Shown piece after piece: positions 4,067-25,339 of a DNA stretch of 58,613 bases. The position numbers and the translations under genes are program-made. The notes under the pieces are model-generated. The model was not told the DNA's origin and did not search any database. It saw only the letters and a program-made list of their open reading frames with translations. The DNA comes from an uncultured Verrucomicrobiota bacterium. GTDB taxonomy: Bacteria; Verrucomicrobiota; Kiritimatiellia; CAIKKV01; CAITUY01. The stretch spans positions 2,716 through 61,328 of the forward strand of contig CAZHRU010000004.1 in the NCBI GenBank assembly GCA_964535015.1. Direction: 5' to 3'. How positions within the stretch are numbered: position 1 is the stretch's first letter; each line of letters begins with the position of its first letter.

Positions 4067-4561
4067 CTAGTACTTCGCAGAAATATCATCACCACCCGCC
4101 CCATTATCCACACAATTCTGCCCGCACGACCAGACCCTGACATAATTCCCCGTCACATCAATACGGATCCGGTACGCCATGTTCGACTTGAATGGATCAC
4201 AGAAAGCACTAGTCGTGTTGGTCAGTTCAAAGAAGTTGATATGCCGCGTGTTGCCTGGCCCCCCGCTTACCAAACAACGCAACACAAGATAATTATTGTT
4301 ACTCCAAACTCCGCCGCCCGATGGATTGAAGGGCCATGCCGTATACTCCGTATGGAACGCTCGTATGGCCGTTGCCACACTCTTCACCTCGGTTTCCGCT
4401 CGCTTGATCTTGGTCTTCATCTGGAACCCGATGATCGCCGGCAACATGATCCCCGCGAGAAGACCAATAATCGCAATCACCGTAAGGAGTTCAATCAACG
4501 TGAACCCCCACACTCCCAGTTTCTGATCCCTGACCCTATCCTGTCTATCCTGTACATCCAT
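4067..4561 (-). CDS. Prepilin-type protein, GspG-like
   Basis: WG|FTLIELLTVIAII; DPF...VWSCG...GDDI C-terminal motif; ORF extends to 4579. Confidence 0.85.
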   Translation of the reverse strand: MDVQDRQDRVRDQKLGVWGFTLIELLTVIAIIGLLAGIMLPAIIGFQMKTKIKRAETEVKSVATAIRAFHTEYTAWPFNPSGGGVWSNNNYLVLRCLVSGGPGNTRHINFFELTNTTSAFCDPFKSNMAYRIRIDVTGNYVRVWSCGQNCVDNGAGGDDISAKY

Positions 4562-4564
4562 GTT
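4538..4564. repeat. 27-bp dispersed element, copy 3
   Basis: atcctgtct atcctgtac atccatgtt. Confidence 0.85.
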
Positions 4565-4588
4565 AGATTCGCACTCCACTCTGCACCC

Positions 4589-5122
4589 CTACTGCATCCA
4601 ACTGGTAACATCGTCCTTCTGCTGTGCCGCAGAGGCAGAGGACCCATCCTTTCCCACCGACCATACACCGATCTCGCGGTAAATTGTTACCCCAGTGTAT
4701 GGAGTTATAATCCCGTCTCCCGGCGTGGCTATAAAATATCTATATGCGGAACCCCACGGATCAACAAATGAACCCGAACTATTTGTCGAGGCCGCATCAA
4801 ACTCCATATAGAGGACACGCCGCGTGTTCTCACCACTACTATTGTTTAGGAACTGCACCATAGCAAAAACTACGTCCTGTCCTGATCCAGTAACAAAGGG
4901 TGGTACAGGCCATCCCCGATAATCACTCTGTATCGCCCGGAAAGCCAGATCCAATTGCTTGACCTCCGCCTTGGCCTTGGTCTTCTTTGCCACCTGCCGC
5001 GCATAACTGAACGCAGGAAAAAGCAACGCCACCAGCAATCCAATGATGGCAACCACCACCAGCAATTCAATCAGGGTAAAGGCATTCCGCCTGCCCAGTC
5101 TCAGATAGCCCGCTTCGTTCAT
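4589..5122 (-). CDS. Prepilin-type protein, GspG-like
   Basis: RNA|[13 protein letters not shown]; DPWG...WSVGKDG...DDVTSW. Confidence 0.88.
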
Positions 5123-5152
5123 ACCATCTTCCCTTCCAACGACTGTCGCATC

Positions 5153-5770
5153 CTAATCCGTCCACTGCACCCCAATATCATCTCCACCACCATTCTCGTC
5201 GCTTCCATTTGGCCCGACAGACCATAGAATAAACCGCTGGTAATCCGGACCTGACGAATTATATCTAAGTTCCCTCCCCCAAGCATCAACCAACGTGTGA
5301 AACTTGTTCGTGAATCCCCCGTTCCAGGCACCAACCGTTACATTAGTGTAGGGGATCGGAGTGATTCCGCTACCAATACCCTCCAGAAAATGCTGCCAGG
5401 GTGCCGCCTCCTGATTGTGCCGACTGTCGGTTGAGAAGATGTAGTACACCAAACCTGTTGACCATCCCAGTTGCTCCTGAGGAATGATAACTTCGGTTGG
5501 TATTAATCCTTCGTAAATGAAAGGAACCGTGCTGACCGGCGGATAGGTTCCATACAAGGCATAGTACGACCCCAGCGCATTCTTGACCTGCTGGAGAATC
5601 CATTCCGTGCGAGCGGTACTCCCCCTCCGATTGACAATCGACATCACCCTGAGCGAGATGCCCATCAGAATCAGGATGATGGACACCACTACCAGGAGTT
5701 CGATCAACGTGAATGCCTTCCGTTTACCGACCGCCACTCCACTCCGGCCCAGTTTCCAGATGTTTTTCAT
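5153..5770 (-). CDS. Prepilin-type protein, GspG-like
   Basis: RKA|[13 protein letters not shown]; DAWG...WSVGPNGSDENGGGDDI. Confidence 0.88.
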   Translation of the reverse strand: MKNIWKLGRSGVAVGKRKAFTLIELLVVVSIILILMGISLRVMSIVNRRGSTARTEWILQQVKNALGSYYALYGTYPPVSTVPFIYEGLIPTEVIIPQEQLGWSTGLVYYIFSTDSRHNQEAAPWQHFLEGIGSGITPIPYTNVTVGAWNGGFTNKFHTLVDAWGRELRYNSSGPDYQRFILWSVGPNGSDENGGGDDIGVQWTD

Positions 5771-5859
5771 TGAAATCCCTCCGTCCAGATTTTACCACAC
5801 ACTCCACCAAACCCAACACTCAAAAACCACCCCGCCCTGTCCCTTACGCACCTCCAAAT

Positions 5860-17698: not shown

Positions 17699-18721
17699 AT
17701 GATGAAGCAGTTCAATGTGTGTGTCGTAGGAATTGGAGCCGTCGGAACCGAAATGGTCCGATTGCTGAAGAAACGGAATTTCCCCGTCAAGTCCCTCACC
17801 ATCCTCGCCCGTAGCGAGCGCGAGGAAATCATCGACGGCGTCCCCTACCCCGTCAAGGTCGCCCGGCCGGAAGCCTTCGAAGGGATGGACTTCGCCTTCT
17901 TCGCCGGCACCGAAGGCGCCAAGGGCGCTTCCCAAACCCTCGGCTGGGAAGCCGTCAAACGCGGCTGTATCGTCATCGATAATGGCGATGACTTCCGCAT
18001 GGATCCAAAGGTCCCCCTGATCATCCCCGAAATCAATCCCGAGGCCATGAAGAACCATCAGGGCCTCATTGCCAACCCGAACTGTAGCACCATTATCGCC
18101 TTGATGCCGCTGACCGCCCTGCATAAGGCCGCCAAAGTCCGGCGCCTGGTGGCCAGCACCTACCAGGCCGTCTCCGGAACCGGCAGCGCCGCCGTCAAGG
18201 AACTGGAAGCCCAAGCCCGGGCCTGGGCCGCCGGACAACCGTTGGTCCACGAAGTCTACCCCCACCAGATTGTCTTCAATGTGTTGCCCTCCGTCGGCTC
18301 GTTCAAGGACGACTCAGGTGAGAGCACCGAGGAGATCAAAATGCGCAAGGAGACGCATAAGATCCTCGGCGACGACACCATCCGGGTGGCCACCACCTGT
18401 GTTCGCGTGCCGGTCCTTAACGGTCACAGCATCGCCATCCATGCGGAATTCGAAAAACCCTTGTCGCCAGAAACAGCCAGGACCCTGCTCTCCAAAACCG
18501 CGGGCGTCCGCGTCGTCGATGACCCCAAACACGCCGTCTACCCCATGCCCATCGATGCCTCAGGCGAGTACGATGTGCTGGTCGGGCGTATCCGCAAGGA
18601 CCTCAGCACCGATAACGGTCTGATCCTGTGGTGCGCCGGCGACAACATCTGGAAGGGCGCCGCGCAGAACGCGATCCAGATCGGCGAAGTCATCATCGAA
18701 CGGAATTACTTTCTCAAGTAG
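17699..18721 (+). CDS. asd: Aspartate-semialdehyde dehydrogenase
   Basis: IANPNCST, STYQAVSGTG, TCVRVPVLNGHS, DNIWKGAAQNAIQI. Confidence 0.96.
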   Translation: MMKQFNVCVVGIGAVGTEMVRLLKKRNFPVKSLTILARSEREEIIDGVPYPVKVARPEAFEGMDFAFFAGTEGAKGASQTLGWEAVKRGCIVIDNGDDFRMDPKVPLIIPEINPEAMKNHQGLIANPNCSTIIALMPLTALHKAAKVRRLVASTYQAVSGTGSAAVKELEAQARAWAAGQPLVHEVYPHQIVFNVLPSVGSFKDDSGESTEEIKMRKETHKILGDDTIRVATTCVRVPVLNGHSIAIHAEFEKPLSPETARTLLSKTAGVRVVDDPKHAVYPMPIDASGEYDVLVGRIRKDLSTDNGLILWCAGDNIWKGAAQNAIQIGEVIIERNYFLK

Positions 18722-18853: not shown

Positions 18854-19282
18854 TCAGTTCCCGCAAAGATTCCCGGGCATCCTTTCCACCCACCGTCGAA
18901 TCTCATCCCTTACCCGCCGGTAATGCCCCAAGGCTTCCTCCTCCGTCTTGGCGCACCGAGCCAACGCCGGTGGATCCTCAAACCCCGCATGAATAACCTT
19001 CGCCTTGCCGCTCAACCATGCCGGACAGGTCTCATGCGCATGCCCACACACTGTGACAACACAGTCGAACGGGATATCCTTGACCGCATCTGTCGTTTTC
19101 GACCGTTGCCCGCTGATGTCCACGCCGGCTTCAGCCATAACCTTGACCGCCTGCGGATTCAACCCATGCGTCTCAATCCCAGCCGAATACGCCTCAATCA
19201 CGTCTCCCTTCAACGTCCGCGCCCACCCCTCCGCCATCTGGCTCCGGCAAGAGTTTCCCGTGCATAGGAAAAGAATCTTCAT
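18854..19282 (-). CDS. arsC: Arsenate reductase, thioredoxin-dependent LMW-PTP type
   Basis: [16 protein letters not shown]-loop, [16 protein letters not shown]; last gene of acr3 operon. Confidence 0.93.
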
Positions 19283-19959
19283 CGCTGGTCAACTTTTCTG
19301 GATTTCAGTTTTTCCATCAGCGCCTTTGCGCGATCGAGAGCCGCACGCTCTGCGTCATTGTCCGGTTCCGACCACGGCTGGGTCACGCGCCAGGTGATTC
19401 GACCATCCAGCGCCGGCCCGTCGAACGGGCCCGGATCCCATAGCGAGTAACCTTTGAACGGCGTCGGCTGTTCCTGATAGCAGGACCGTACCGCCTGGCG
19501 GATCTGTTGCTCCGGCTCGAACTGCAGATCTATCAGCGTCACCTGTTGCAGAAGACGCAGGATGAATTCCGCGGGAATGTTGTGAAGCACCGCATGAGCC
19601 GCGTCAGTCCCCAAGATACGCTTCCGCGCATCCACCCCATTGGCGAATAGCGCCTTCAGCGAGTCCCCGGTATGATGACCGGGAGACTCCGGCCCGCCAA
19701 GGATGAGGTACCGGATATTCGGATTGCCGACGAGGTTGCAGATCATCTTCTCAAAACCAATGTTGGGCGTCTGGACGGTGCCCGCCAGGGCCGCCCCGCT
19801 CTCCGCCCCGGCTCGTACAAGTTTCTCCAGATCGAGAGGGATCTTGTCCTCATCGGTATTGAGAATAATCGCCACAGCCACCGGAGAGGCATCGTTCCCC
19901 CTGAGGTACCGCCCCGGTTCGGCCGGGTAATTAGGATGCGGCGTTGCTTTGATCATCAT
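19279..19959 (-). CDS. MtrA-like (methyl-H4MPT methyltransferase subunit A family) soluble corrinoid protein
   Basis: [77 protein letters not shown]; no C-terminal TM anchor; ATGA overlaps at both ends. Confidence 0.85.
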
Positions 19960-21146
19960 CCCGCCCCTCCCCGGAACCAATGTTGCGTTCGCAGACATAT
20001 CCGCACCAACCCTAACATCACCGGCACTTCAATCAACACCCCCACCACGGTTGCCAGAGCCGCACCGGAGGAAAGCCCGAATAGCATTGTCGCCGTGGCA
20101 ATCGCCACCTCGAAGTGGTTGGACGCCCCGATCATCGCCGCTGGGGCCGCGTCACGATACGGCAGTTTCAACCATTTCGCCCACCCATACCCCAACCAAA
20201 AGATCAGCAGGGTCTGAATGAACAGCGGCACCGCGATCCAAAGAATCGTCAACGGATTGCTCATGATCGTTTCACCCTTGAAACTGAACAACAGGACGAG
20301 CGTCGTCAGCAACGCAAGAATCGTGATCGGCGTAAGCACGTGCAGAAACTTCTCCGTGAACCAAGACTCGCCCTTGACCTGGATGATCCACCGGCGGGAC
20401 AAATATCCGGCGACCAACGGCAGCGCCACGTAGATCACGATGGACAACAACAACGCCTGCCACGGAACCGGGAGTTTTCCCACGCCCAGCAGGAACCCGC
20501 CCAGCACACCGTAGAGCACGAGCATGGACAGGGAATTGATGGCCACCATGATCAGGGTCAGCCCGTCGTTGCCCTTGGCCAGATATCCCCACACCAGCAC
20601 CATCGCCGTGCAGGGTGCGATTCCAAGCAGAATACAACCCGCAAAGTAACTGCGCCACAGGGGAACCTGCAACATCTTGACTCCCTCATGCAACACGACC
20701 GTGCCCGCTCCATGCGTGGCCCCAACCGCCAGATCCAATCCGAACGGCATCTTCACCAAGTCCGTCGCTTCGTCCCCGATCAGGGCTTTGAACAGAAACC
20801 CGAGGAACAGCAGGGCAATCGCATACATCGTGAACGGCTTGATCGCCCAATTGACGAACAGCGTCAACCAGACCGGCTTGCCGCTCCTGCCAGCCTTCAC
20901 AACCGAGGCAAAGTCAATCTTCACCATGATCGGGTACATCATGAAGAAAAGGCAGATCGCAATGGGAATGGATACCACCGGGGCATCATTTACATAAATG
21001 GACATTCCATCCAGCGCCTTGGCCAGTCCCGGCGCCAGTTTTCCCAACAGGATTCCACCCACAATGCAGAGCGCCACCCACACGGTCAGATAGCGCTCAA
21101 ACATATTCGTCAACTTCCGCTCATTCGCCCCTTTTTCGCTACCCAT
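19956..21146 (-). CDS. acr3: ACR3 family arsenite efflux transporter
   Basis: [60 protein letters not shown]. Confidence 0.96.
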
Positions 21147-21160
21147 ACCTTCCCTTTCGC

Positions 21161-21862
21161 TTAACGCGCAGTGTAGATCAGATAAAAACCACCGGAAAGC
21201 ACCAGCCCCCCGCACACTTTCCTCAGAATCACCGCGCCCTTGGACTTCTCATTCCAATCCAAGTAATGCTGCACCACTTCCGTGAAGGTTCCTGCCACCA
21301 CAATCACCGCGCAGTGCCCCACCCCGTAGCACAGGAGCAGGAGGGTCCCGTATGCAAGGTCCGTTGCCGCCGCCTTGAACGACACCACCAACATCGGCGC
21401 CATATAGGCAAAGGTGCAGGGGCCCAGCGCGAGCCCGAACACCAACCCCAGAATCAATGCCGCCAACATCCCTTTCCCTTTCATACCCGGCTGAACCGCG
21501 TCCCGCATCGGCAGTCGGATCACACCCAACAGATAAAGCCCGACCGTAAAAAAGATCAGAGCCACCCCGTAGTTTCCCCAGCGCCCCACATCGCCCATCA
21601 TCCGCCCCGCCGCCGCCGTAACAGCCCCAATCACGCCTATGGTGATCAGGATGCCAACCGCAAAGAGCAGGGAAATGGTGAAGGCCCGCCGCGTACTCAT
21701 CCGCCCCTGCTGATCAATAAAACCCACGATCAACGGAATACTCGCCAAATGGCAGGGACTCAACAAGATGCTGAGCACACCCCAAATCAAGGCGGCACCC
21801 AACGCAATGCCCGCCGACCCCTCTACCGCATGCGACAGAACCGTAAAGATCCATTCCATCAT
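21161..21862 (-). CDS. CcdA/DsbD-like transmembrane thiol-disulfide electron transporter
   Basis: [14 protein letters not shown] and GLALGPCT cysteine motifs, about 6 TM helices. Confidence 0.9.
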
Positions 21863-22401
21863 TCTGACTTCTGACTCCTGACGCCTGATTTCTGCCCCAA
21901 CTCCACTCCAAGTTCCTTCCACTTCGCCAGAATGTCTTCCTTGCTGTAAAATCCTTCGTGCCTGAACACTTCCTTCCCGGCCACGTCATAGAATATCTGC
22001 GTCGGGATTAACTTGATCCCGCAGTCTTCTCCCGCCTTGGGGTTCTCCCAGACATCAACAAACTGAACGTCCACCTTTCCGGCATAGGTCTTCTTGAGGT
22101 CGGCCAGAATGGGCGCCATCATCTTGCACGGAATGCACTTCGTTGCCCCGAGATCAACCAGGCGGGGCAGGGACACCCCTTGCGTGGTTCTTTCGGCGGC
22201 GGAGTCCTTCCCTCCGGGCGCCTCAAAGACCGCCGCCGTCTCGTTCGCCCCCGGATTCTTCCCTGCGTTCTTGGCGATCAACACCCCCACAACACCCAAG
22301 GCCAATACAATCCAGATCCACTTACCCACCCCGGCGCAACAACTCCCTCCACCGCACCCACACAGTGAACCTTCGCCTTTACCGTCGCTCTCGTTTGTCA
22401 T
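21859..22401 (-). CDS. Membrane-anchored thioredoxin with Cys-rich N-terminus
   Basis: DLGATKCIPCKMMAP, IPTQIF; N-terminal CGCGGGSCC followed by TM helix. Confidence 0.9.
   Translation of the reverse strand: MTNESDGKGEGSLCGCGGGSCCAGVGKWIWIVLALGVVGVLIAKNAGKNPGANETAAVFEAPGGKDSAAERTTQGVSLPRLVDLGATKCIPCKMMAPILADLKKTYAGKVDVQFVDVWENPKAGEDCGIKLIPTQIFYDVAGKEVFRHEGFYSKEDILAKWKELGVELGQKSGVRSQKSE
21862..21889. repeat. Heptamer array (TTCTGAC-like)x4 inside thioredoxin 3' end
   Basis: ttctgac ttctgac tcctgac gcctgat; encodes SGVRSQKSE. Confidence 0.75.
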
Positions 22402-22458
22402 ACCACCCTCTTGACGTCAACCGAACCGATCCACTCCGAACCATAACCGTTTACGACC

Positions 22459-23232
22459 TCACGACCGCAGTTGGGCCAGCCGCCCCTCCAACTTGGGCCT
22501 CGCCGCTACCACAAAGGCGCTGACTTCTTCGGCCAACGGATTGACCGGCACTAAATCCTGCACCCCGGCAGGCGAAAGCCCTGAATCGCGCATCGTCGCC
22601 ACAGCACCCCTCAACATCTTCTCGATGCCATCCCACGCCGCTTGACGCGAAAGTCCTGATGTCTCGGCCAACGACGCCAGCATTTCCAGTTGCGGCCAAA
22701 TGAAGGTCAAGCCCATGGCGGTCACGACCGCGTAGATCTCAAGTTGCGCTTCGGGCACCTCGACGCACTCGCCCAGACTTCCGAACAACTTGCACAGAGC
22801 CGCGCGTTCCTGTTCCCCTAATGCTTCACCAAACACCGTGGGATTGTAACCCTTGCCGACGATGGACGCGGCATTCGGTATCATCCGTGCAATACGGCAA
22901 AAGCCGCCGAGCATCGCCGTCAACTTCGCAACGCTGAATTTCGGCGCAAGCGACACCATGACAGTATCGGACTTCAAACCCGGCTGAATCTGCGGAAGTA
23001 GTCCACCGATGACTGGCGGATGCACGGCCAGAAACACCACGTCCTGTTCCGTGGCTTCCGCGAGAGTTCCGACTCGAATATTAGGGTGCCGGATTTTGAG
23101 TGTTGTCACAACGTCCTGGTTGCAGTCGAAGACAACCACCTTCTCAGGCACGGCCCCGGCACGGGCCCATCCACCCAAAAAAATCGTCGCAATTCTGCCA
23201 CCCCCGATGAATCCTATGCTCTTCTTGCTCAT
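22459..23232 (-). CDS. Pyrroline-5-carboxylate reductase-like NAD(P)-binding oxidoreductase
   Basis: IGFIGGGRIA Rossmann motif, VVFLAVHP, IARMIPNA, helical C-domain; lacks canonical SPGGTT motif. Confidence 0.8.
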   Translation of the reverse strand: MSKKSIGFIGGGRIATIFLGGWARAGAVPEKVVVFDCNQDVVTTLKIRHPNIRVGTLAEATEQDVVFLAVHPPVIGGLLPQIQPGLKSDTVMVSLAPKFSVAKLTAMLGGFCRIARMIPNAASIVGKGYNPTVFGEALGEQERAALCKLFGSLGECVEVPEAQLEIYAVVTAMGLTFIWPQLEMLASLAETSGLSRQAAWDGIEKMLRGAVATMRDSGLSPAGVQDLVPVNPLAEEVSAFVVAARPKLEGRLAQLRS

Positions 23233-23260
23233 CGTCTGCCTCTTTCGTTTTGTTATTCCC

Positions 23261-23494
23261 CTAATCCAGCAACTTCCGGATCTCATCCACCCCCAACGCC
23301 TTGCCCGCACTCTTGACCTGCCCGTCCACAACCAAAGCCGGTGTCAACATGACGTTGAACTTCATGATGTCCGCGATCTTCTCAACCTTCTCCACCGTCG
23401 CGTTAAGGCCCAACGCCCTCACCGCCTCCTCCGCGTTGGCCGTCAACAGTTTGCATTTCGGACATCCCGTTCCCAGTATCTGTATTCGCTTCAT
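23261..23494 (-). CDS. Small redox-active disulfide protein (MTH895/ArsE-type thioredoxin fold)
   Basis: IQILGTGCPKC...VMLTPALVVDG. Confidence 0.92.
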   Translation of the reverse strand: MKRIQILGTGCPKCKLLTANAEEAVRALGLNATVEKVEKIADIMKFNVMLTPALVVDGQVKSAGKALGVDEIRKLLD

Positions 23495-23514
23495 GATTCC
23501 ATGCCCTCCACCAT

Positions 23515-24927
23515 TCACGCACTAACCATTCCCCAAACCAGTCCCGTAATCGTCGCCATCAACACCACCAAGCCGACATACGCAAGGGTCTTCCTCGGGC
23601 CGAGTATCGAATTGATCACCAGCATGCTGGGCAATGACAAGGCTGGCCCCGCCAGCAGAAGCGCCAGGGCCGGTCCCTGCCCCATCCCACTATCCATCAA
23701 CCCGCGCAAAATCGGCACTTCGGTCAGCGTGGCGAAATACATCAACGCCCCGGCGAACGAAGCAAAGAAATTGGTCCAAATCGGCCACACGGCAAAAAGC
23801 CACCGCGGCACAAGTCCACCTTCACTATGGACGTACCCCCAGAACACAGTCGGATCATCCCCCACCAAGGCCTGGATCCAACGATGCGGAACAATCCCGG
23901 CATCCTTGGCATCAGCGCTCCCAAGGAAGAAACCGGCGGCCAGCACACCCATGAACAAGAGAGGCATGATCTGTTTGGCAAACCCCCAACTCGCATTCAC
24001 CCACTCTAAACGTTCCTCCCGTCCAACCCAGCGCCGCACCATCAAGACCAGCATCAGCAACAGCCCTGCAACCAGGAACCAACGCCCCTGATAGACCCGA
24101 TTGCCTAGTTGCTCAGGATGCGCCGGCGTAACCTGCCGGATCTCGGCCACGGGTAAGATCCTCACGGCACCTTCCTCGGTGAGCACCCGGATATGCTCCG
24201 GAGTCTTCTCCAAAACCTGGCCCTCCACACTGTAAACCGTCAGACCGTTCGGACAACACAGAAAGACCGCTCGAACATCCCCACTACGTGCCCAGTTGGC
24301 AAAAACAAGTATCCCCACCATCCCGAGAAATATGACCGCCGTCTGCCAGAGCGGCCGCACCGGCTTGTCGTCCGTCTCCAGATACACCTCCGACGTCTGC
24401 GCCGCCTTGGCACGCTCCTCCTTGAGAAAGAACAGATGCATCAATGCGCCGATCACCACGCTGAACACCACCGCCCCCACCGTCCGCGCAATCCCCAAGG
24501 GAACCCCCAACACCCGCGCCGTCATCAGAATGGCCAGCACATTGATGGCTGGCCCCGAATAAAGAAACGCAATGGCAGGGCCCAATCCTGCCCCACGCAT
24601 GTAAATGCTTCCGAAAAGCGGCAACACGGTACACGAACACACCGCCAAAATCGTCCCCGAAACCGAGGCTACCCCGTAGGCCAGCACCTTGTTCGCCTTG
24701 GGCCCGAAGTACCTCATCACCGCGTTCTGGTTCACAAACACCGAGATCGCCCCGGCGATGAAAAACGCCGGAACCAGGCACAGCAACACATGTTCGCGTG
24801 TATACCACTTGACCAAACGGAACGCCTCAACCACCGCCCCTTGAAACCGCTGTGAGTCAACAGGCAAGAAATACAGGGCCAGAAATGCCGCCACCAGCCA
24901 TGCCAGATACCGGAGTTCCCGCTTCAT
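23515..24927 (-). CDS. ArsP-like (DUF318) permease with inserted soluble domain
   Basis: EHVLLCLVPAFFIAGAI, AVCSCTVLP, FLYSGPAIN, MYFATLTEVP, AGPALSLP. Confidence 0.9.
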   Translation of the reverse strand: MKRELRYLAWLVAAFLALYFLPVDSQRFQGAVVEAFRLVKWYTREHVLLCLVPAFFIAGAISVFVNQNAVMRYFGPKANKVLAYGVASVSGTILAVCSCTVLPLFGSIYMRGAGLGPAIAFLYSGPAINVLAILMTARVLGVPLGIARTVGAVVFSVVIGALMHLFFLKEERAKAAQTSEVYLETDDKPVRPLWQTAVIFLGMVGILVFANWARSGDVRAVFLCCPNGLTVYSVEGQVLEKTPEHIRVLTEEGAVRILPVAEIRQVTPAHPEQLGNRVYQGRWFLVAGLLLMLVLMVRRWVGREERLEWVNASWGFAKQIMPLLFMGVLAAGFFLGSADAKDAGIVPHRWIQALVGDDPTVFWGYVHSEGGLVPRWLFAVWPIWTNFFASFAGALMYFATLTEVPILRGLMDSGMGQGPALALLLAGPALSLPSMLVINSILGPRKTLAYVGLVVLMATITGLVWGMVSA

Positions 24928-25277
24928 CCTGTCACCCCCTTGGCCACCACCGCCGTCTCCCCTAGCAACCGGTTGTGCGTCGCCGCCGTCGATCGAATGA
25001 CTTCCTCCGTACAAACAAAGAACTGCGTCACACAAGGGCACTTCAAACGATAAAACACCTGAACCCCGCGCTTCTCGTCGGCCACAATCCCCGCATTCTT
25101 GAGAACCGAAAGATGCTTGGATACGGTGGAAATATCCGACCCCACCCACTCCCGGATCTCACGTACACACCGGGCCCCCGCCTTTAACTCATCCACAATC
25201 CTCAAACGGGCGGGATGCGCCAACGCCTTCATGATCCTGGCCCGCTCAACGTATAAGTCCTGCCGCCGACTACCCAT
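24924..25277 (-). CDS. arsR: ArsR/SmtB family metalloregulator
   Basis: KALAHPARLRI, STVSKHLSVLKNAGIV..EKRG..VFYRL; C-terminal CPC..C; GGAGGAG RBS. Confidence 0.93.
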   Translation of the reverse strand: MGSRRQDLYVERARIMKALAHPARLRIVDELKAGARCVREIREWVGSDISTVSKHLSVLKNAGIVADEKRGVQVFYRLKCPCVTQFFVCTEEVIRSTAATHNRLLGETAVVAKGVTG

Positions 25278-25301: not shown

Positions 25302-25339
25302 TACTTGGCCATTTTGCCAAGTAGACACACCCACGTCAA
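25302..25339 (-). promoter_or_regulatory. arsR promoter with 8-6-8 operator palindrome
   Basis: TACTTGGC-N6-GCCAAGTA (25302-25323) overlapping minus-strand TTGACG-N17-CAAAAT. Confidence 0.75.

Follow-up and report, generated by a model that had tools for sequence, protein, structure and literature searches.

The arsenic operon and its MtrA-like gene

The window, a stretch of 58,613 nucleotides from an uncultured Verrucomicrobiota bacterium of the class Kiritimatiellia (assembly GCA_964535015.1, contig CAZHRU010000004.1), carries an arsenic resistance (ars) operon in which a gene for a soluble relative of MtrA, the corrinoid protein of a methyltransferase complex of methanogens, lies between acr3 and arsC. 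The linkage of this MtrA-like gene to ars genes exceeds chance, and the gene is a recurrent accessory gene of the ars operons of anaerobes. An earlier look at the sequence alone (the original prediction) had singled it out as a candidate for cobalamin-dependent arsenic methylation, demethylation or detoxification. The observation behind that prediction is confirmed by our analysis, and its interpretation as a whole is partly supported.

The operon consists of nine co-directional genes on the minus strand (25277-18854), with arsR first and arsC last, and overlaps or short gaps join consecutive genes all the way from arsR through arsC (Table 1). It was predicted that the MtrA-like gene is translationally coupled to acr3 and arsC, and both ATGA overlaps are indeed present: its ATG (19959-19957) overlaps the acr3 stop codon TGA (19958-19956), and the ATG of arsC (19282-19280) overlaps its own TGA (19281-19279). 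However, ATGA or GTGA overlaps also occur in the arsR/permease, permease/thioredoxin-like and membrane-type thioredoxin/DsbD_TM pairs, and translational coupling is a trait of the whole operon and not peculiar to the MtrA-like gene. The open reading frame of the latter spans 19279-19998 (239 residues), the 226-residue form starting from the ATG at 19959. The frame of acr3 extends over 19956-21215, its ATG at 21146 being preceded by a purine run like a ribosome-binding site, and the start of the MTH895/ArsE-family gene is either GTG 23518 or ATG 23494.

Table 1. Features of the ars operon in the window
Feature	Position	Strand	Basis and remarks
Promoter-like site TTGACG-17-CAAAAT, TG before the -10	25311..25339	-	Consensus scan; sigma-70-like, upstream of arsR
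arsR, 117 residues, operon gene 1	24924..25277	-	PF01022 HTH_5, E 9.3e-11; stop overlaps permease ATG
ArsP_1-family permease, start ATG 24927 (MKRELRYL...)	23515..24927	-	PF03773 232.7 bits; ATGA overlap with arsR
Small thioredoxin-like protein, MTH895/ArsE family	23261..23518	-	TIGR00412 105.2 bits, cut-off 62; PF13192 87.9 bits
NADP oxidoreductase, pyrroline-5-carboxylate-reductase/F420_oxidored type	22459..23232	-	PF03807 48.3 bits; start probably at MSKKSIGF
Thioredoxin, Cys-rich N-terminal hydrophobic stretch	21859..22401	-	PF00085 50.9 bits
DsbD/CcdA-type transmembrane thiol-disulfide transporter	21161..21862	-	PF02683 51.9 bits; ATG 21862, ATGA overlap with thioredoxin
acr3, arsenite efflux permease, 396 residues, divergent type	19956..21146	-	TIGR00832 373.5 bits, cut-off 282.8
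Soluble MtrA-family corrinoid-type protein, 226 residues	19279..19959	-	Profile matches, alignment to 5LAA, hydropathy
arsC, low-molecular-weight-phosphatase (thioredoxin-coupled) type, 142 residues	18854..19282	-	PF01451 LMWPc 62.5 bits; last gene of the operon

An inverted repeat read from the sequence (ACTTGGC...GCCAAGT) spans the -10 of the promoter-like site and is a candidate ArsR operator. Control by ArsR was part of the original prediction; the operon is headed by arsR, although the control itself is something that we infer. Some of the family assignments are broad: the permease, for which the original prediction proposed export of organoarsenicals, matches only the broad Pfam family ArsP_1, the NADP oxidoreductase scores 113.7 bits against the proC model (under its cut-off of 196.75) and ArsC scores 147.5 bits against arsC_pI258_fam (under its cut-off of 174.3). 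The thioredoxin-like protein, the membrane-type thioredoxin and the DsbD_TM protein (21161-23518) resemble the ArsE/ArsF/ArsG set that NCBIfam assigns to aromatic arsenicals, with only ArsE over its cut-off (ArsG family 48.5 bits versus 200). Ordinary genes of the chromosome lie on either side, grpE and gnd at one end and, at the other, asd (17699-18721, convergent with arsC) and a dehydrogenase gene of the isopropylmalate type. No signal of foreign base composition was detected, the G+C content being 0.581 in the operon and 0.596 in the genome.

A conserved, probable corrinoid site in a soluble MtrA relative

The original prediction placed an MtrA-family core with a corrinoid His at 19279-19959, and this stands: the protein matches PF04208 MtrA (E 2.5e-33, 115.6 bits, cut-off 25) and narrowly passes NCBIfam NF002126, the soluble MtrA subfamily (PRK00964.1-4; 167.7 bits, cut-off 161), and the quoted stretch ending in ANGVD is found in the translation. 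The mtrA equivalog TIGR01111 is missed (112.6 bits versus 249.15), and the protein is best filed in the soluble MtrA subfamily and not as MtrA proper. Among solved structures it is closest to the cobalamin-bound 5LAA, a cytoplasmic MtrA homologue from Methanothermus fervidus (E 6.7e-31), and MtrA of the Mtr complexes solved by cryo-electron microscopy is also among its best solved relatives. Positions 2-172 are matched to these solved chains by the family profile, with E 3.7e-41 for 5LAA. The MtrA core comprises residues 1-170, with a 10-residue insertion relative to canonical MtrA, and is followed by a clade-specific C-terminal extension (approximately 171-226), about 55 residues for which no sequence match was found among solved structures. 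A C-terminal membrane anchor had been reported missing, and none was found by hydropathy either: the top Kyte-Doolittle mean over 19 residues is 0.91, compared to 2.18-2.35 at the C-termini of four canonical MtrA proteins.

In MtrA, cobalamin is contacted by Tyr18, Thr53, Asn55, Gly57, Asn64 and the ligand His84 (PMC4915002). In the alignment to 5LAA these residues correspond to Y18, T64, N66, G68, N75 and H95 of the window protein, and His95, the equivalent of the corrinoid-ligating His84, lies within GPESPGH. T64, N66, G68 and N75 are invariant in all 76 aligned rows of the clade to which the protein belongs and H95 is present in 75 of them, whereas position 18 holds Y in 71 rows and F in five. 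At 25 of 25 further loci from later samples, T64, N66, G68, N75 and H95 were all present. Judged from these residues, the protein very probably binds a corrinoid through His95 in the base-off/His-on mode.

A further possibility is that the fold has been put to a new use with no corrinoid. The protein would then assist Acr3 or ArsC in the cytoplasm as an accessory or chaperone, for instance as a subunit that binds arsenite or docks, by means of its cysteines and C-terminal extension. Of its direct neighbours Acr3 is the most frequent (upstream at 12 loci, see below), the extension is conserved in the clade, and two cysteines attract attention: Cys160, kept in 76/76 clade rows, and Cys74, kept in 69/76, where canonical MtrA has Ala or Val. 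Yet Cys160 is a Cys also in the M. fervidus homologue, and Cys74 aligns with Ala63 of 5LAA, beside Asn64 in the helix lining the nucleotide-tail pocket, and on these grounds a vicinal-cysteine arsenite site was rejected. As all side-chain cobalamin contacts of 5LAA are retained, and about half of the loci lack Acr3 or ArsC nearby, a role without cofactor seems very unlikely.

Linkage to arsenic genes

Relatives are encoded by at least 573 stretches when each species is represented by a single genome, and the counts of loci (numbered with the prefix L) use the best 80 of them, with up to 8 kb on each side. Searched with the window's own proteins, 35 of the 80 loci had Acr3, ArsC or the ArsP_1 permease, six had other operon genes only and 39 had none. 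The recurrent neighbour clusters were identified as common-type Acr3 (452.1 bits), ArsR, DGC, ArsM-like, DUF166, radical-SAM/SPASM and heavy-metal P-type ATPase proteins. A core ars gene (Acr3, ArsC, ArsP_1 or ArsM-like) was thereby present at 39/80 loci, from at least seven phyla, and 45 were linked when ArsR, the ArsE-like thioredoxin and DGC were counted too. ArsR (32 loci) and Acr3 (31) were the most frequent neighbours, followed by the ArsE-like thioredoxin (27), ArsC (19), DGC (15), ArsP_1 (13), DsbD_TM (10), DUF166 (10), the membrane-type thioredoxin (9), ArsM-like (9), P-type ATPase (7) and radical SAM (6). Directly adjacent on the same strand, Acr3 was found upstream at 12 loci and ArsC upstream at five and downstream at six, and the order acr3, MtrA-like gene, arsC recurs in Spirochaetota (L025, L030 and L045).

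The genome of the window (3.02 Mb) has its ars genes at this single locus, and the chance that a random gene lies 8 kb or less from an ars gene is thus below 1%. With the baseline set generously at 3%, the binomial probability of at least 35 of 80 loci is 8e-32, a figure inflated by relatedness among the loci. The enrichment of homologues beside ars genes, which had been set beforehand as a check on the original prediction, was seen also outside these loci, in two extra samples that were drawn evenly and had 1.5 kb of flank: Acr3, ArsC, ArsP_1 or ArsM-like was present at 10 of 19 loci in the independent archaeal sample (46-63% identical to the window protein) and at one of four new loci in the sample of a bacterial phylum. 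The acr3 genes themselves differ in type. The window Acr3 shares 78% identity with its counterpart in a Methanoregulaceae locus (L013) but just 30% or so with the Acr3 adjoining the MtrA-like gene in its nearest relatives (L001 and L003), and acr3 has been exchanged while its adjacency to the MtrA-like gene persisted. A function tied to arsenic or another metalloid is probable.

Other genes recur beside the MtrA-like gene in particular lineages. In Spirochaetota (L017, L018, L025, L026 and L030) radical-SAM/SPASM genes, from one to three in tandem, come after the MtrA-like gene or after arsC, the nearest model being a tungsten-cofactor-oxidoreductase maturase-like one (239.8 bits, under the cut-off of 380). 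In Methanomicrobiales (L032, L041, L047, L053 and L061) a DUF166 (DfsP-like) gene lies between acr3 and the MtrA-like gene, directly upstream of the latter. One archaeal contig (L138 and L152) has two MtrA-like copies, separated by about 2 kb in which an ArsR-like gene lies; one of the copies adjoins an ArsM-like gene.

Distribution of the family

At least 2140 proteins match the window protein at E <= 1e-5. The best 120 of these are 181-273 residues long and all have PF04208, and those of them that are named are all annotated as tetrahydromethanopterin S-methyltransferase subunit A. The best 80 loci come from bacteria (Kiritimatiellia, Anaerolineales, Spirochaetota, Thermodesulfobacteriota and other 'delta' groups, Actinomycetota, Planctomycetota, KSB1 and Nitrospinaceae) and from archaea (Methanomicrobiales, Methanotrichaceae and Methanosarcinales), the relatives in Kiritimatiellia being the closest (86-90% identical). 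Methanogens hold the gene besides their canonical tandem MtrA (5/5 genomes), while one MtrA-family copy is present in the window's genome and no second one was found there.

In a quick maximum-likelihood tree of 87 rows, from which L016, L024, L034, L041 and L050 (four of them ars-linked) are missing as they were dropped as duplicates, the clade of 226-residue proteins is split from canonical MtrA by a branch with a Shimodaira-Hasegawa-like approximate likelihood ratio (SH-aLRT) support of 100. The ars label changes 13 times on this tree and is found in at least six phylum-level groups, the labelled rows including Kiritimatiellia, Spirochaetota, Syntrophaceae-type bacteria, Actinomycetota, Chloroflexota and Methanomicrobiales. 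The distribution of the clade is patchy: the protein was found in none of 300 other sampled genomes of the window's own phylum at E <= 1e-20, and the gene in 17 of 300 genomes of the sampled archaeal phylum and in five of 300 of the phylum to which a Syntrophaceae genome belongs.

A group of 15 longer relatives (P0121-P0135; L126, L130 and L132) was also seen. These are paralogues of 407-488 residues, most of them 425, about 50% identical, which add a C-terminal domain with a Cys motif, and one has a weak N-terminal match to TusA (25.2 bits versus the cut-off of 28.6). The C-terminal Cys module occurs also as a stand-alone protein of about 120-145 residues, three of them in tandem on one Chloroflexota contig, and it was present in four of 401 genomes searched. 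In five genomes tried the long form was not found, only the short form.

arsM beside the MtrA-like gene

The known methyltransferase gene of ars operons, arsM, is found beside the MtrA-like gene in several loci. In L002, an 88%-identical relative, arsM (313.8 bits, NF008823) stands where the window has arsC, and in the methanogen loci L041, L047 and L061 arsM directly adjoins the MtrA-like gene. In L031 and L065 the arsM lies upstream of it and seems truncated at its N-terminal end, perhaps owing to an in-frame TGA. A Methanosarcina genome (L109:536-2061) has arsM (345.9 bits) followed, after 233 nucleotides, by a soluble MtrA paralogue of 182 residues. This paralogue, placed outside the clade of 226-residue proteins, gives the best match to NF002126 (263.1 bits). 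Two separate soluble MtrA lineages are thus found beside arsM, which ties them to arsenic methyl chemistry. At the same time, the adjacency argues against a plain replacement of ArsM by the MtrA-like protein.

Partner enzymes and corrinoid capacity of the host

The original prediction noted that no other Mtr subunit, arsM or hgcA lies in the window, and this could be extended to the 87%-complete genome, in which neither MtrH nor ArsM over its cut-off was found (best ArsM score 44.7 bits versus 263). Two CdhD-family genes flank a RACo gene on another contig (G000 contig C1:19512-24278). From their place with the RACo gene they look like the corrinoid protein of the acetyl-CoA pathway rather than hgcA, and the cluster suggests a Wood-Ljungdahl-type methyl branch. 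Altogether the genome holds two RACo-type activases, genes for corrinoid iron-sulfur protein (CFeSP), CobS and ten matches to B12-binding domains, eight of them over the Pfam cut-off. The cofactor, its activation and a supply of methyl groups are thereby at hand in trans. A cognate corrinoid methyltransferase was not among the recurrent neighbours of the 80 loci, where the only methyltransferase was ArsM (9/80), which depends on S-adenosylmethionine (SAM).

A possible methyl carrier for arsenic

Methylcobalamin methylates arsenite non-enzymatically, and cob(I)alamin forms arsenic hydrides. Our best explanation is that the MtrA-like protein is a soluble corrinoid methyl carrier acting on arsenic species, as an accessory of the ars operon, to which we would give a probability of about 0.4. 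A methyl carrier is the most economical mechanism, given the methyl-carrier fold, the conserved His-on site, the adjacency to arsM and the corrinoid machinery of the host. A single transcript under arsenic regulation would yield the protein along with ArsR, the ArsP_1 permease, the thiol-redox module, Acr3 and ArsC. As a hint of expression, contigs from RNA libraries (two studies) match parts of the operon, and one of them (19599-20060) crosses the junction of acr3 and the MtrA-like gene; carried-over DNA is a possible source of these contigs, and the uncovered parts of the operon carry no evidential weight. As a His-on carrier, its cobalt would cycle between Co(I) and CH3-Co(III) and swap a methyl group with arsenic species, so that either CH3-Co(III) would methylate As(III), or Co(I) would take the methyl from a methylated arsenical and leave arsenite for Acr3. 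Loading and unloading of the methyl group, as well as reductive activation, would be the task of enzymes encoded elsewhere in the genome. Such methyl exchange, in whichever direction, is put forward tentatively. Of the carrier as originally predicted, the solubility, the membership in the MtrA family and the corrinoid His have held, whereas the operon lacks a methyltransferase for loading or unloading, and we infer the methyl transfer.

A number of observations weigh against the methyl carrier. No MtrH-, MtaA- or MtaB-type methyltransferase is encoded in the operon, and MtrH is, as stated, not found in the whole genome. In MtrA, Glu54 hydrogen-bonds the ligand His, and this His-Glu linkage tunes the methyl-transfer chemistry (PMC4915002). 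The equivalent in the window protein is Pro65, and across the 76 clade rows the position holds P in 33, E in 37 and A in six, compared to Glu in 11/11 canonical and paralogue rows. Glu54 is missing from 24 of 32 ars-linked rows and from 15 of 44 unlinked ones. The conserved 'meander' motif of MtrA, GAIPYxEN, is altered in the window protein as well, and no residue clearly tells members with an ars link from those without: a frequency difference above 0.5 is seen at positions 35 and 73 only.

The loss of the His-Glu linkage, commoner in the ars-linked members, and the operons without a partner methyltransferase would both suit a corrinoid protein that is linked to arsenic in a non-methyl role. 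In such a role Co(I) could serve as a strong reductant on arsenicals (yielding hydrides or arsines), or the protein could shield or buffer the corrinoid pool and the methyl-corrinoid enzymes against arsenite. The evidence from synteny and from the cofactor site is the same as for the methyl carrier, and the hosts are heavy corrinoid users (methanogens, syntrophs and Dehalococcoidales), CFeSP being present in the window's genome. On the other hand, arsM directly beside the gene in seven loci, together with the second paralogue, points to methyl chemistry, arsenate reduction is already covered by the ArsC of the operon, and a protective corrinoid protein of such a kind was not met in the literature consulted. 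We consider the non-methyl role unlikely.

The genomic context adds further points of the same kind against a methyl carrier specific to arsenic. Acr3, ArsC, ArsP_1 or ArsM-like is lacking, within up to 8 kb, from 41/80 loci, and the unlinked rows include a Thermodesulfobacteriota-type clade of 19 rows, six Anaerolineales and three Thermoleophilia. The neighbours at the 45 loci without Acr3, ArsC or ArsP_1 are a mixed set: 172 Pfam families are represented in 147 proteins, and no family occurs in more than four. In Anaerolineales, three conserved upstream open reading frames, which have no Pfam or NCBIfam match, look unrelated to arsenic. In a Desulfobacterales locus (L019:4048-5824) a NiCo riboswitch (49.7 bits, gathering score 37) precedes the gene for a cation-diffusion-facilitator exporter (4178-5080), and the MtrA-like gene (5129-5824) follows directly after the exporter, in a context of cobalt or nickel rather than arsenic. 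Heavy-metal P-type ATPases are found in seven of the 80 loci, so that the gene may be linked with metal(loid) stress more broadly. A simple substitution of ArsM by the MtrA-like protein is also doubtful. No cobalamin riboswitch reached the gathering score in the 17 that were scanned (146 kb) of the 45 loci without Acr3, ArsC or ArsP_1, the single NiCo riboswitch being the only hit there.

From these points it could be argued that the protein has a general corrinoid, one-carbon or metal-stress function with no arsenic-specific chemistry, and that it is carried along like the thioredoxin, DGC, DUF166 and radical-SAM genes. Linked and unlinked members are equally conserved in sequence, and genomes with unlinked copies mostly hold arsM elsewhere: ArsM over its cut-off was found in 34/45 of them versus 11/35 genomes with an ars-linked copy (Fisher p 1e-4), a contrast that is confounded by taxonomy and completeness and that we take as a lead only and do not build on. 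However, the ars enrichment is very large and was repeated in the independent sample, and the place beside acr3 has been kept although acr3 is not of one type (the Acr3 of L001/L003 shares about 30% identity with that of the window). In addition, immediate adjacency on the same strand, often with overlap, is typical of functional operon partners. Such hitch-hiking thus appears to us an improbable account of the linkage, and the methyl carrier is retained as the best explanation.

Comparison with known systems

MtrA belongs to the methanogen complex MtrA-H, the Na+-pumping methyl-tetrahydromethanopterin:coenzyme M methyltransferase. It is of the same Pfam family as the window protein, its Rossmann-like corrinoid domain aligns over residues 1-170, and its ligand His84 and the five other contact residues are retained. 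In contrast to MtrA, the window protein has no C-terminal transmembrane helix and neighbours ars genes, not mtrEDCBAFGH, and it belongs to a separate clade, with Pro in the place of Glu54, an altered meander, the 10-residue insertion and a new C-terminal extension. Cytoplasmic MtrA homologues (the 5LAA protein and MtxA-type paralogues) are likewise soluble and single-domain, and they are His-on cobalamin binders. The one from M. fervidus is 97% identical to its membrane MtrA, and bacterial MtrA homologues, with His84 mostly conserved, are known to exist (PMC4915002), whereas the window protein is of a separate, widespread clade of about 226 residues with its own extension. MtrA-like proteins and MtrAH fusions in Asgard archaea have been discussed as possible methyl-tetrahydromethanopterin enzymes (PMC11291895).

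The nearest precedent for a corrinoid protein in an ars regulon is ArsR-controlled hgcAB. HgcA/HgcB resemble the case described here in that a dedicated corrinoid protein presumably delivers its methyl to a toxic metal, and hgcAB has been described as responsive to arsenic, governed by an ArsR-like regulator and co-localised with ars genes in some genomes (bioRxiv 10.1101/2022.10.17.512643). The same source describes an ArsR-ArsP-ArsE-DGC operon, like the module found here. HgcA, however, has a CFeSP-type (CdhD-family) domain, a membrane domain and a ferredoxin partner, while the window protein is soluble and of the unrelated MtrA fold, and no ferredoxin gene adjoins it. ArsM, the known ars-encoded route of arsenic methylation that lies beside MtrA-like genes in several loci, is SAM-dependent and differs in fold and methyl donor, and it is not over cut-off in the window's genome.

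For the removal of methyl groups, ars operons are known to encode ArsI, a C-As lyase acting on methylarsenite (PMC10579292). ArsI is an oxygen-dependent dioxygenase, useless to strict anaerobes, and has no relation in sequence or cofactor to the MtrA-like protein. The mechanism of anaerobic arsenic demethylation has been called unclear, and methylotrophic corrinoid methyltransferases have been implicated in paddy soils, a corrinoid methyl acceptor being the working idea for the demethylation of dimethylarsenate (PMC10579292; bioRxiv 10.64898/2026.08.27.747368). The likeness to the methylotrophic systems of the MtaB/MtaC/MtaA type lies in the corrinoid protein as acceptor of an arsenic-derived methyl, but the corrinoid proteins of those systems are PF02310 and come with cognate substrate methyltransferases, and neither is encoded with the MtrA-like gene.

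The statement in the original prediction that MtrA has not been described as an ars gene agrees with the literature searched: in the full texts no MtrA homologue was found as an ars gene, and no description of an ars context was found for cytoplasmic MtrA homologues or for the clade of the window protein. Prior notice of the linkage is possible in genome-level work, cited by bioRxiv 10.64898/2026.08.27.747368, on methanogen contigs that carry methyltransferase as well as arsenic genes. The MtrA-like gene can be regarded as a new candidate accessory gene of the ars operons of anaerobes.

Implications

The anaerobic making and above all the removal of methylated arsenic bear on the straighthead disease of rice and on arsenic speciation in paddy soil and groundwater. 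A corrinoid-protein gene inside ars operons, beside acr3, arsC or arsM in methanogens, syntrophs, spirochaetes and others, is a concrete and clonable candidate. More speculatively, soluble MtrA-type proteins might be the core of an oxygen-independent, B12-dependent methyl exchange of arsenic, foremost in the form of an anaerobic demethylase and in reverse as ArsM-independent methylation, though we think this unlikely. In the demethylase form, Co(I) would strip the methyl from methylated arsenicals and the arsenite would be passed to Acr3, as an anaerobic counterpart of ArsI and ArsH.

Even if the gene is only hitch-hiking, the finding keeps its use, as the label tetrahydromethanopterin S-methyltransferase subunit A misleads surveys of methane-cycle genes in bacteria that have no Mtr complex. 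If, instead, the methyl carrier acting on arsenic is true, it would be the first physiological role for the cytoplasmic MtrA homologues, and the protein would be the second corrinoid protein, after HgcAB, to be tied to an ArsR regulon.

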